Shown here: one piece after another, positions 11,224 through 46,621 of the stretch | Position numbering within the stretch: position 1 is the first letter of the stretch | How the letters are laid out: every line of letters begins with the position of its first letter | Assembly (NCBI GenBank): GCA_041690395.1 | Contig: JAWLHJ010000003.1 | Span: 416,001-480,000, forward strand | DNA: 64,000 nt | Direction of reading: 5' to 3' | From: Longimicrobiales bacterium | GTDB taxonomy: Bacteria > Gemmatimonadota > Gemmatimonadetes > Longimicrobiales > Gaopeijiaceae | Program-made: the position numbers and the translations under genes | Notes under the pieces: generated by a model | Database searches by the model: none | Seen by the model: the letters and a program-made list of their open reading frames with translations, nothing else | What the model was told of the DNA's origin: nothing

Positions 11224-11619
11224 ATGCACCCGATCATCAAGCCAGCCCTCGCCGTCACGGCCGCTGCGCTCCTCGCAGCCATGGGTTGTTCCACATCTGC
11301 CACGAACGCCCCGTCCCGCCCGAACGTCGTTTCGGTCGAAGATGCGCACCTCGCCACCCTCCGAGCCCGCGTCGAGCCGCCGGATTCCTCGGTGCTCGAA
11401 GCCTTCGAGTTGATGAACATGATGCCGGAGCCGTGCGAGGAGCTGTGGAACCCCGCGTCCTTCGCCGCGAAGTCGACGGTCCTGAGGCTGACCTACCTCG
11501 AGGACGGGCGCTTTCCGGTCTCGAGTGCGTTGAGGACTCTGGAGGAAAGGGCTCGCCACCCGGAGCGTACGCGCTCCGCATGCCTCGCGGATCCTCGCGA
11601 AGTGAGCCTACCGTGGTAG
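11224..11619 (+). CDS. Hypothetical lipoprotein
   Basis: GAGG RBS; lipobox 'AAMGC'. Confidence 0.65.
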   Translation: MHPIIKPALAVTAAALLAAMGCSTSATNAPSRPNVVSVEDAHLATLRARVEPPDSSVLEAFELMNMMPEPCEELWNPASFAAKSTVLRLTYLEDGRFPVSSALRTLEERARHPERTRSACLADPREVSLPW

Positions 11620-12863
11620 ACGTTCGACTCGGAGGGTGGCCGGTGGGACGGGGTGCGTTGCCCGGTCTCGGGTTGCTGCTGGTGGCTTGCGCGGGGTACG
11701 AGCAGGGGGCACAGGAGTCGGTCGTACGGGACAGCGCCGGTGTCTCGGTGGTAGAGTATCCGCAGGGCATCCCCACCGGCCCTTCCTGGTCGCTGGCAGC
11801 GGAGCCTACGGTCGTGATCGGAGAGGCGGACGGCCCCGAGGAGACGCTTTTCTCCCGGGTCGTGGCGGCCGTGAGCGGTCCTGACGGCGCCCTCGTGATC
11901 GCAGATGGGCAGAGCAGAGAGATCCGGTGGTTCGACGAGAATGGCGAGCATCTCCGAACAGTCGGAGGCTCGGGAGACGGCCCCGGCGAGTTCCGACATC
12001 TCTCGTGGGTAGGGCGCCTGAACGGTGATACGATCGGCGCGTGGGATCGGTCGGCACGTCGATTGAGCTTCTTCTCATCAGCCGGAGATCTCGTAGCGTC
12101 GCAGGAGGTGGGACCGATCGAGGCCACCTTCGACTCGCCCCCCGGCACGTTCATCACGATGACGCCGCAGGTGCGAGGAATCTTCGGTGATGGATCGATG
12201 CTCGCCGAGCTCATCATCGTCTATCCGAATGTCGCGCCCGGGGTGCGGAGAGATTCCGTCCCCCTCATGCTCTTCGATCGAGGGACAGAGGAATGGGACC
12301 GGATCGGTACCATACTCCCGGCAGAGCTCTTCATCGATTCCGAGTCGGCGGTGGCTCTGCCCCTTCCCTTCGGACTCCGGACCCAACTGGCGGTCGCGGA
12401 CGAATGGGCGGTGATTGGATGGGGGGACGAAGCGGGGCTGACCGTCATCGATCGCGGAGGTAGTGCGAGAGCGGTCATCCGGCCGAATCTCGAGCGCATC
12501 CGCCTCGGTCAGGACGAGATCGATGCTGACCGACGGGCCCGTATCGAGGTCATCGCGGAGCCGGATCGAGACGCGTACCGGAGGGCGCTGCAGGCCGTCG
12601 CGTATCCCAACGTGCGGCCCGCCCACGGACGGATCGTCGCTGGTCGCAACGAATTCTGGGTGGAGGCGCCGAGCGGTTCGGGGGCTCCGGAATCCAGCTC
12701 GTGGTTGGTCTTCTCGGATTCAGGGCAGTATCTCGGGTCGCTCGAGGCACCTGGCGGCCTGCAGATTACCGATGTTGGTGACGACCATGTCGTTGGGGTG
12801 CTGACCGACGAGCTCGGTGTTCCGAGAGTCGTGAGGTTCGAGCTGCGAAGAGGGGTGTTCTGA
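11613..12863 (+). CDS. 6-bladed beta-propeller lipoprotein
   Basis: 'LLLVAC' lipobox; 'RDSAGV', 'GGSGDGPGEF', C-terminal 'DELGVPRV'; start approximate. Confidence 0.8.
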   Translation: MVDVRLGGWPVGRGALPGLGLLLVACAGYEQGAQESVVRDSAGVSVVEYPQGIPTGPSWSLAAEPTVVIGEADGPEETLFSRVVAAVSGPDGALVIADGQSREIRWFDENGEHLRTVGGSGDGPGEFRHLSWVGRLNGDTIGAWDRSARRLSFFSSAGDLVASQEVGPIEATFDSPPGTFITMTPQVRGIFGDGSMLAELIIVYPNVAPGVRRDSVPLMLFDRGTEEWDRIGTILPAELFIDSESAVALPLPFGLRTQLAVADEWAVIGWGDEAGLTVIDRGGSARAVIRPNLERIRLGQDEIDADRRARIEVIAEPDRDAYRRALQAVAYPNVRPAHGRIVAGRNEFWVEAPSGSGAPESSSWLVFSDSGQYLGSLEAPGGLQITDVGDDHVVGVLTDELGVPRVVRFELRRGVF

Positions 12864-12885: not shown

Positions 12886-13075
12886 ATGAGCAGTTATCGG
12901 AAAATGAGCCTGGATCGGGTTGCGGCGGGAGGGCTCGCCAGGCATGGGGCTCTTGGAAGGCGAAGCCGTGAGGACCGTCCTGACTCCGATATCGACTTCC
13001 CTGTGGAGTTCGATGGAGACACAAGTCTCTTCGACGAGCGTCGGCTGGAAAGGCGGCTCAGGCGACGGCGCCGGC
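12886..13075 (+). pseudogene. Remnant of a minimal nucleotidyltransferase (MNT antitoxin-like) gene
   Basis: 'ARHGA...EDRPDSDIDFPVEF..DTSLFD' resembles MNT, but FGS motif is missing and the frame runs into the repeat element. Confidence 0.6.
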
Positions 13076-13293
13076 CTATCCGACGCGTGGCAGAAACGTG
13101 ACACGGCGGGTGGGTGCGGCGACCGCGCGGGATGTTTCTGCCGCATACGGTGGTCAACATGCCACGGGGCGGGATCTCGGCGGCGGCCTTGTGACCTTTC
13201 TGCCGTATAGGGTGGTCAACATCCCAATCGCCGGTCGAGGTCGTACGGGTTGGGATGTTTCTGCCACGTTCGGTCGAGCGACACCGGCAGCGG
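13076..13293. repeat. Palindromic repeat-spacer element, copy 1
   Basis: About 10 mismatches in 218 bp versus 45712-45929 by manual alignment; 37-bp units with 24-25-bp spacers. Confidence 0.95.
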
Positions 13294-13516
13294 TTTGCCC
13301 TCCAGGCTTCCGGCCACGGGTCCGTCCCGGGGTACCCTCGCTGTTTCTATCCGGCACGGGTCCATGTATGTCCTAGGTATGACCTACTGGATCCTCGAAT
13401 CACGCCGTGGGCGCCCGCCGGAATCCCCCGGAAAGGCCGACCCAGTGAAACCGTCGCACGCGAAGACCGTACGGGTGATATCCGCAGATCCGACACCTCA
13501 CCCATGGTAGGCACAC

Positions 13517-13903
13517 ATGCACGCTGAAGGCACGTTCGAAGTGGAGCTCCAGCCCACGAGCGCCTCGCCCGTCGAGACCCTCGACCTGAAGAAGCGGTTC
13601 GCGGGCGGGCTCGAAGGAACAAGCGAGGGAACGATGCTCGCGTCCCGCTCCGAAGGCGGAGCCATGTACACCGCCATGGAGAAGGTCCAGGGGACGCTGG
13701 GCGGCCGGGCCGGGACGTTCGTGCTCGTGCACCGAGGAATCATGGCCGCGGGCAAAGAGGAACTCGAGATCATGGTGGCGCCTGGATCGGGCACCGCTGA
13801 GCTCACCGGGCTCTCCGGGCGGATGTCCATCCAGATCGAAGACGGGGTCCACCGCTACACGATGGAGTACGACGTCGCGGAGGAGGAACGGGCGAGTCGG
13901 TAG
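13517..13903 (+). CDS. DUF3224 family protein
   Basis: 'KRFAGGLEGTSEG.ML', 'YTAME.V.GTLGGRAGTFVL.H', 'PGSGTAELTGLSG'. Confidence 0.9.
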   Translation: MHAEGTFEVELQPTSASPVETLDLKKRFAGGLEGTSEGTMLASRSEGGAMYTAMEKVQGTLGGRAGTFVLVHRGIMAAGKEELEIMVAPGSGTAELTGLSGRMSIQIEDGVHRYTMEYDVAEEERASR

Positions 13904-45711: not shown

Positions 45712-45929
45712 CTATCCGACGCGTGGCAGAAACGTGACACGGCGGGTGGGTGCGGCGACCGCGCGGGATGTTTCTGCCGCATACGGTGGTCAACATGCCA
45801 CGGGGCGGGATCTCGGCGGCGGCCTTGTGATCTTTCTGCCGTATAGTGTGGTCAACACCCCGATCGCCGGTCGAGGTCGTCCGATTTGGGATGTTTCTGC
45901 CACGTTCGGTCGAGCGAAGACGGCAGCGG
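45712..45929. repeat. Palindromic repeat-spacer element, copy 2 (direct orientation)
   Basis: Matches 13076-13293 at offset 32636. Confidence 0.95.
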
Positions 45930-46263: not shown

Positions 46264-46266
46264 GAG

Positions 46267-46621
46267 TGGAGGCGGCGGGAGTCGAACCCGCGTCCGCGAA
46301 TGAGTCCAGCAGGATCTCTACGTGCGTAGAACGCTGAGAGGTCTCGCTACGGTGAGCCAGCGATCAGCCCGGTCCGCAGCCAGCCACCTGAAATCTCGTC
46401 TTCCGTCCTGGTGGCGCGAACGGTAGACCAGCCCGACTCGTCGTCGTCTCAAGGAGCGCCTCGGGCGGGCCCTCCAGGAGACGGGCCTACGTAAGGTTTA
46501 GCTTACGCGGCCAGCGCCATGTTGTTGTTGGCAGCTATCAATTTTCCCAAGGATTTACGAGGATCAGGACCTCGGCACGCAACCCAACTTTCACCAAACA
46601 CGTCGAAGCCGTGACGCCCCC
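46267..46621 (-). ncRNA. ssrA: tmRNA; tag peptide (A)ANNNMALAA encoded at 46503-46532
   Basis: 5' GGGGGCG...TTCGAC; 3' GGGTTCGACTCCCGCCGCCTCCA; acceptor stem with G3:U70; tag ends ALAA-stop; CCA not fully encoded. Confidence 0.97.

Follow-up and report, generated by a model that had tools for sequence, protein, structure and literature searches.

An intergenic array of partly palindromic repeats and evenly sized spacers occurs in the 64,000-nucleotide stretch of DNA analysed here (the window), raising the question of what kind of element it is and which protein, if any, acts on it. The original prediction framed it as a CRISPR-like mini-array without cas genes and interpreted it as either a non-autonomous REPIN/MITE-like element, with its enzyme encoded elsewhere, or a structured ncRNA array; this interpretation is partly supported overall. 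The element is one copy of a dispersed intergenic family, found at more places than chance would give.

Architecture of the Element

The six-arm core is approximately 185 bp long and spans window positions 13085..13268, corresponding to G000:C3:429084-429268, where G000 is the source genome (4.33 Mb, 69% GC, 98% complete). It begins with the left terminal arm L1 (13086..13103, + strand), the first 12 nt of which form a perfect terminal inverted repeat with the right terminal arm, R3 (13251..13268, - strand). Between these lie a 24 bp linker (13104..13127), whose length is kept across the family while its sequence drifts, the back-to-back arms R1 and L2 (13128..13164), a 25 bp linker containing the dyad axis of the entire element (13165..13189), the back-to-back arms R2 and L3 (13190..13226), and a third linker of 24 bp (13227..13250). 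The seven segments originally described (19, 24, 37, 25, 37, 24 and 18 nt) are present in position, letters and length, as is the 12-bp perfect terminal inverted repeat, and the 61-62-bp period was reproduced by a repeat finder, which detected three copies spaced 62 and 61 bp apart. The 37-bp palindromic repeat taken as the unit corresponds to the pairs R1 + L2 and R2 + L3; both 37-mers exist, identical at 30 of 37 positions, but the natural unit is an arm of approximately 18 bp that is present six times.

Together with flanks common to some sister copies, approximately 33 bp on the left and up to approximately 65 bp on the right, the shared sequence covers 13049..13331; in other copies similarity ends at the terminal arm and the flanks are not shared. 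Position 13331, where the shared flank ends on the right, lies between the two copies of a near-identical 14-15-bp direct repeat (13309-13323 and 13350-13363), and a weak terminator-like hairpin is located nearby at 13328-13340. The element sits in a 650 bp intergenic gap adjoined by + strand genes on both sides, the left neighbour having a weak beta-propeller match (11286-12863, +) and the right neighbour being a DUF3224 gene (13517-13903, +); no sigma-70-like promoter was found in this gap.

A Dispersed Family in the Source Genome

The source genome probably belongs to the Gemmatimonadota, as relatives of its proteins carry the labels Gemmatimonadota/Longimicrobiales. When the genome was searched by BLAST, as had been proposed, the whole element including its spacers was found at three other G000 loci at 88-96% overall identity, one of them inside the window (45720..45904, + strand, 96% identical). 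This second copy lies 360 bp from the tmRNA gene (46264-46621, - strand; Rfam RF00023, 165 bits). The spacers are thus unique within the element, as originally claimed, but not in the genome, where the three other copies carry the same three. The subfamily to which the window element belongs looks recently spread. An iterated HMM converges on 34 full-length elements in G000 with E values of 3e-15 or below, the next match having an E value of 1.9 and the best match in the reversed genome, used as control, 1.3. These matches are 181-188 bp long and have a median pairwise identity of 47%. A match in genome G020 reads as chance, being inside apparent coding sequence.

In the common build, a single arm stands at each end and two back-to-back pairs of arms lie between, separated by linkers of 24, 25 and 24 bp; the six alternating arms are versions of one motif of approximately 18 bp, and the back-to-back arms are approximately 3 nt apart. 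The period is 60-63 bp in 58 of the 61 elements from G000, its sister species G002 and a further member of the genus, G006. Linkers are less conserved than arms, with identities of 78% against 86% in nine orthologous pairs and 82% against 87% in ten paralogous pairs. Paralogous copies share between 0 and approximately 65 bp of flank, and 90 bp in one pair. At G000:C5:581730-582558 four whole elements stand in tandem with a period of approximately 214 bp, where the G002 locus holds a single element.

The terminal inverted arms are the best-paired part of the element, and column analysis favours a dyad of the whole element, the top two windows having an excess of 0.14 and 0.12 against a background sd of 0.023. 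The fold of the window element beats all 200 shuffles as DNA (z -3.0) and all but one of 200 as RNA (z -2.65), and the two strands fold alike, at -48.3 and -48.7 kcal/mol. Arm pairs were also tested one by one, and none matched better inside one element than between similar elements. A single conserved hairpin fold was dropped on this negative result, and no specific fold is claimed. As no within-element pair has an advantage and the strands fold alike, the arms are read as double-stranded binding sites and not as one RNA fold. The structured ncRNA array of the original prediction is not supported, with no single covarying fold and neither strand folding better, and the Rfam search it called for returned only the tmRNA in the window and no match for the element.

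A second, unrelated dispersed family was observed at 25 places in G000, with 26-bp arms, and none was found in the window. In its clearest copies the arms are inverted and 119-121 bp apart; examples are C5:419938-420083, C1:494109-494253 and C2:695612-695758, and the one overlapping ORF tested encodes a TonB-plug protein.

Genomic Setting and Edge Repeats

According to the gene orientations given by a crude GC-frame gene caller in G000, 20 of the 34 elements are located between convergent genes, 13 between co-directional genes and none between divergent genes, the remaining one being close to the end of a contig; three overlap a crude ORF call and 31 do not. With the tandem run counted once, convergent gaps hold 17 of 30 elements compared to 122 of 563 gaps overall (p 2e-5), and divergent gaps hold 0 of 30 compared to 120 of 563 (p 9e-4). 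The genes beside the copies vary from one copy to the next and include the weak beta-propeller and DUF3224 genes, MarR, a MalT-like regulator and an FAD monooxygenase; being unrelated and different at each copy, they were rejected as functional partners.

Short tandem repeats are found in 17 of 21 element-bearing gaps compared to 55 of 919 other gaps, among gaps with 60-600 free bases. A tandem repeat is present within 250 bp at 45 sides among the 61 elements, a count that includes a few orthologous pairs, and at 22 of these 45 sides the repeat starts between -5 and +10 bp from the element edge. The window copy has no flanking tandem repeat.

Gain, Loss and Persistence Between Species

Fifteen G002 and 13 G006 element loci were compared with G000, with an HMM match in 27. 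The element has been gained or lost between sister species, yet has long persisted at most loci: for 13 of the 15 G002 elements the corresponding G000 locus is also occupied (in one case judged by a single flank), while of the remaining two, one occupies a site that is empty in G000 (approximately 425 bp vs 44 bp) and one is without assignment. Ten of 12 G006 elements have no G000 element within 1 kb of the matching flanks, and at one G006 locus the gap measures approximately 456 bp vs 49 bp in G000. Around the G000 copy at C1:517973 the gap measures approximately 582 bp vs approximately 60 bp in both G002 and G006, bringing the loci with filled and empty sites to three in all. The polymorphic segments, at approximately 380-525 bp, are larger than the element, and the species are too diverged for a clean reading of the junctions. 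At C3:293546 the G002 gap holds other genes and is hence uninformative on the filled or empty state.

The segment beside the C1:517973 copy that is missing from G002 and G006 (G000:C1:517600-517970; L006:1126-1500) contains, besides the element, approximately 300 bp that may be a piece of an ABC-permease gene and, near its far end, a single partial arm. For the window locus, no orthologous empty site was found in five relatives; a soil contig of 8259 bp matches it over 13049-13331, and no joint spanning the locus was found among soil contigs.

The AbiEi_4-DUF559 Gene and Its Protein

A DUF559/AbiEi-like nuclease had been named among the candidate partners, and the data support this. G000 has two genes with AbiEi_4 and DUF559 domains, at C5:336082-337020 and C4:442712-443605. 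Neither is in the window, and an element lies approximately 200 bp upstream of each; in the background, seven of 2897 called G000 genes have an element within 300 bp upstream. This linkage, with the dispersed family itself, supports the earlier idea of a non-autonomous REPIN/MITE-like element served by an enzyme from elsewhere in the genome. The crude caller missed the start of the nuclease gene on C4. The open frame of this gene runs through a low-complexity repeat into the adjacent copy, or cassette, in G000 (C4:443600-443990, L055) and in G002 (L062), and in both the nearest upstream in-frame ATG falls inside the cassette.

The gene was found in 12 of 41 genomes (a 13th match, in G039, covers the N-terminal part only and was left out), and the element model matches eight genomes, seven of which carry the gene. 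The one element-positive genome among the 29 without the gene is 68% complete. A Fisher p of 2.5e-4 for this co-occurrence is an overstatement, as kin genomes are not independent. Three members of the genus have neither gene nor element, and G001 has the gene but no match to the G000 model. Both G000 nuclease genes are found at the same loci in G002, and dN/dS between orthologues is 0.16-0.20 in three pairs; thus, with fixed loci and purifying selection, the genes are not moving now.

An AlphaFold model of the protein has a mean pLDDT of 92. The predicted fold of the N-terminal approximately 200 residues matches AbiEi (6y8q, E 2.7e-5), with Rv2827c also matched, and the predicted C-terminal fold matches the nuclease domain of I-Bth0305I (3r3p, E 2.8e-4, target TM 0.83), with Vsr also matched. 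E218, D245 and H263 are invariant in 91 sequences and D272 is conserved in at least 90% of them. In a profile alignment to 3r3p, D245, H263 and D272 align with D196, H213 and D222, positions named as catalytic in the accessible text of PMC3239194, and E218 is probably the counterpart of E170 in I-Bth0305I. The protein therefore resembles the EDxHD I-Bth0305I/Vsr group in predicted C-terminal fold and aligned catalytic residues. It differs from I-Bth0305I in that it is not in an intron or intein, has another DNA-binding domain and is encoded at a stable chromosomal locus, such that the non-coding cassette multiplies and not the gene.

Proteins with this architecture are common (1359 matches among 7996 candidates scored), and their annotation goes no further than antitoxin or very-short-patch-repair protein. 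In the literature covered, mostly open-access and available in part, no paper linking DUF559/AbiEi-Vsr proteins to dispersed repeats was found; the Vsr-like domain of MTES_1575 is described in other architectures, without repeats, in the accessible portion of PMC3710099. Ku is present in exactly four of the seven genus genomes (G000-G006), those with the nuclease gene; across 41 genomes it is found in nine of 12 with the gene and 19 of 29 without. A dependence on Ku was rejected as the genus-level match (7/7) vanishes in this larger set, and a need for end-joining is thus unsupported.

Cassettes Beside the Gene

In a prospective test, gene-adjacent cassettes were used as queries in four cases, and all four have dispersed copies in their own genome: the G001 cassette at 11 other places, the cassette of the third G002 gene at six, and the G038 and G040 cassettes at three and four, respectively. 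Another 16 genome-query pairs gave no match to the four cassettes, although for three of the four queries the control genomes were other species, in which a match might fail in any case. The G002 case is the most telling, as both nuclease genes of its sister G000 are orthologues of the other two G002 genes, and neither the third gene nor its cassette family was found in G000 (98% complete).

In a tree of 61 elements, the window element falls in a clade with the cassette of the C5 gene (local support 0.94). All 12 G006 elements are inside this clade, and 20 of 34 G000 and ten of 15 G002 elements are outside it; a C4-type gene was not found in G006 (75% complete). The cognate enzyme of the window subfamily is uncertain, as identity of the window element to the C5 and C4 cassettes is only 48% and 39%, respectively.

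G000 HMM matches lie near only four of 80 homologous genes. A sequence-independent template, made up of four alternating 15-bp arms and open to periods of 40 to 90, was scored at these 80 loci, which come from Gemmatimonadota and Actinomycetota (Thermoleophilia for the most part). Eight of them were dropped from the upstream set (three partial matches and five short flanks), leaving 72; a pass was a score above the 95th percentile of 128 distal windows. Upstream, 38 of 72 pass, 34 of these with a period of 60-63. Downstream, nine of 73 pass with this period, five of them without an upstream pass. None of 45 distal windows scoring at least 60 has a period of 60-62, and two of 200 G000 intergenic controls pass with a period of 60-63. 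The other 34 upstream windows fail the template, which also misses the known C5 cassette. Arm sequences vary from gene to gene while the period is kept, and several Thermoleophilia cassettes apparently have four arms instead of six, as judged by eye. Arm arrays with a period of 82-83 were seen on both sides of the gene at L222 and upstream at L061. The cassette is multi-armed and fixed in length, and has a lineage-specific link to a gene carrying an intact predicted nuclease.

Comparison to REPIN-RAYT Systems

The family shares with REPINs a short extragenic palindromic element in many copies, vertical persistence with high diversity within a genome, and occasional tandem clusters that include flanks (here the four copies of period approximately 214). 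As in REPIN-RAYT systems, a low-copy partner gene is flanked by its own repeat, with one repeat group per enzyme; the REPIN-RAYT features compared are those given in the accessible parts of PMC3116915 and bioRxiv 10.1101/2021.07.10.451892. Unlike the two-REP hairpin of a REPIN, the element has six arms at a fixed 61-62-bp period, its copies number in the tens where REPINs number in the hundreds, and the partner combines an AbiEi-like fold with a Vsr-like nuclease. A RAYT/Y1 transposase (PF01797), one of the neighbours suggested for checking, was not found in G000, while the same search found it in six of 14 control genomes. The REP tag GTAG/CGTC (PMC3733652, as far as available) occurs within the outer 14 nt at either end in seven of 34 elements, or in 18 of 34 if GTGG is allowed, in a genome of 69% GC, so that no consistent tag is seen. 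With no RAYT and no tag, membership in the REPIN-RAYT class fails.

Proposed Mechanism and Alternatives

The explanation favoured here, with some confidence, is that the element is mobile but non-autonomous, depending on the AbiEi-like protein with its predicted Vsr-like nuclease, encoded elsewhere, to bind and cut it and thereby copy it. We infer these three activities of the AbiEi-Vsr protein on the element. Each arm would bind one protein monomer through the AbiEi-like part, and the fixed linker length would set the nuclease domains in register, a period amounting to approximately six helical turns by arithmetic. Nicks or breaks near the terminal arms would then be completed by host repair, which may occasionally place a copy in a tolerated intergenic gap, and selection would keep copies in convergent gaps. 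Ragged shared flanks and tandem repeats at the edges would follow from such cutting and host repair. More tentatively, and at slightly less than even chances, gene and cassette may form a two-part replicator, in which a domesticated AbiEi-Vsr nuclease without a transposase fold reads a ruler of arms that is variable in sequence and fixed in length and copies the cassette by cut-and-repair, leaving tandem-repeat scars at the edges, with each gene lineage keeping its own cassette family.

The cassette could instead be the operator or binding platform of the protein, bound but not moved, with autoregulation, chromosome organisation or a role as defence sentinel as the purpose of binding, while recombination or repair by the host spreads its copies passively. 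AbiEi and Rv2827c act as repressors at their own promoters, where they recognise two or four inverted repeats: AbiEi monomers bind two 23-bp inverted repeats 3 bp apart and Rv2827c binds four (accessible text of PMC7319586), and the present system has in common with AbiE operators an AbiEi-fold protein, inverted-repeat arrays upstream of the gene and the close spacing of back-to-back arms. The mostly upstream position of the cassette (34 of 72 compared to nine of 73 downstream) fits an operator, as do the G002 elements at matching G000 loci, by which most copies are old and stable. Unlike AbiE operators, the arrays are dispersed and far from promoters, avoiding the promoter-rich divergent gaps in favour of convergent ones, and unlike the AbiE type IV toxin-antitoxin system, the nuclease domain is fused and an AbiEii/DUF1814 toxin gene (PF08843) was not found in G000. 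Five homologues pass the template only downstream, and passive spread leaves the gene-specific families and the kept nuclease active site unexplained; a purely operator-based account is considered unlikely. The gene-adjacent cassette probably also acts as operator of its nuclease gene.

A less probable account, and a rather doubtful one, is that the elements are MITEs moved by an unrelated transposase, with the nuclease gene a selfish, homing-like gene settling beside them. The size of 100-400 bp, terminal inverted repeats and lack of coding capacity are those of MITEs and TIR/TIRYT elements (PMC3733652, available text), the terminal arms are the best paired, the nuclease domain resembles the homing endonuclease I-Bth0305I, and the window subfamily has no close gene-adjacent cassette. 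Yet a homing-like gene is at odds with two nuclease genes at the same G002 loci under purifying selection, and in two phyla the 60-63-bp period goes with the gene despite differing arms. Unlike MITEs, the elements have ragged ends, internal repeated arms and no readable target-site duplication (the empty sites being too diverged), and they are linked to a nuclease and not to a DDE or tyrosine transposase; Y1, the one transposase family searched, was not found.

Very improbable is that the element works in the manner of CRISPR or TIGR arrays, its transcript being processed into guide RNAs of approximately 61 nt for the nuclease, since its repeat-spacer look, fixed spacer length, stable folding and location upstream of a nuclease gene are set against spacers that are passed on together with the element and change by point substitution faster than the arms, strands that fold alike without fold-specific covariation, the absence of an Rfam match or cas1, and a best N-terminal fold match to a DNA-binding repressor. 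A CRISPR array proper was rejected: the partly palindromic 37-bp repeats and evenly sized spacers are CRISPR-like, but there are only two full repeats and the whole unit is dispersed, with the same spacers at four loci drifting by point mutation. cas1 (PF01867) was not found by profile search in G000, while the search found it in seven of 14 control genomes, in agreement with the original statement that cas genes are lacking and against its CRISPR-like framing. The proposed comparison of spacers to viral sequences likewise gave no protospacers, with phage and plasmid matches at chance level only (best E 7 and 0.1).

Implications

With copying by the AbiEi-Vsr protein as the preferred explanation, the family is of the kind in which a repeat has a dedicated enzyme, with a different enzyme, and it could form a new class should mobilisation be demonstrated. 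Among vertically inherited repeats with a dedicated enzyme, REPIN-RAYT is the case already described, and the same population pattern is seen here with an unrelated enzyme class. The element family also explains a class of false CRISPR calls. For AbiEi_4-DUF559 proteins, the cassette offers a concrete candidate substrate, a site of several arms that differs in sequence between genes but keeps its spacing, and if the replicator reading is true it would give these abundant proteins a function. If mobilisation is true, a nuclease of the Vsr type would be added to the enzymes by which non-autonomous DNA spreads, a possible explanation for the orphan palindromic repeat families of GC-rich soil bacteria.
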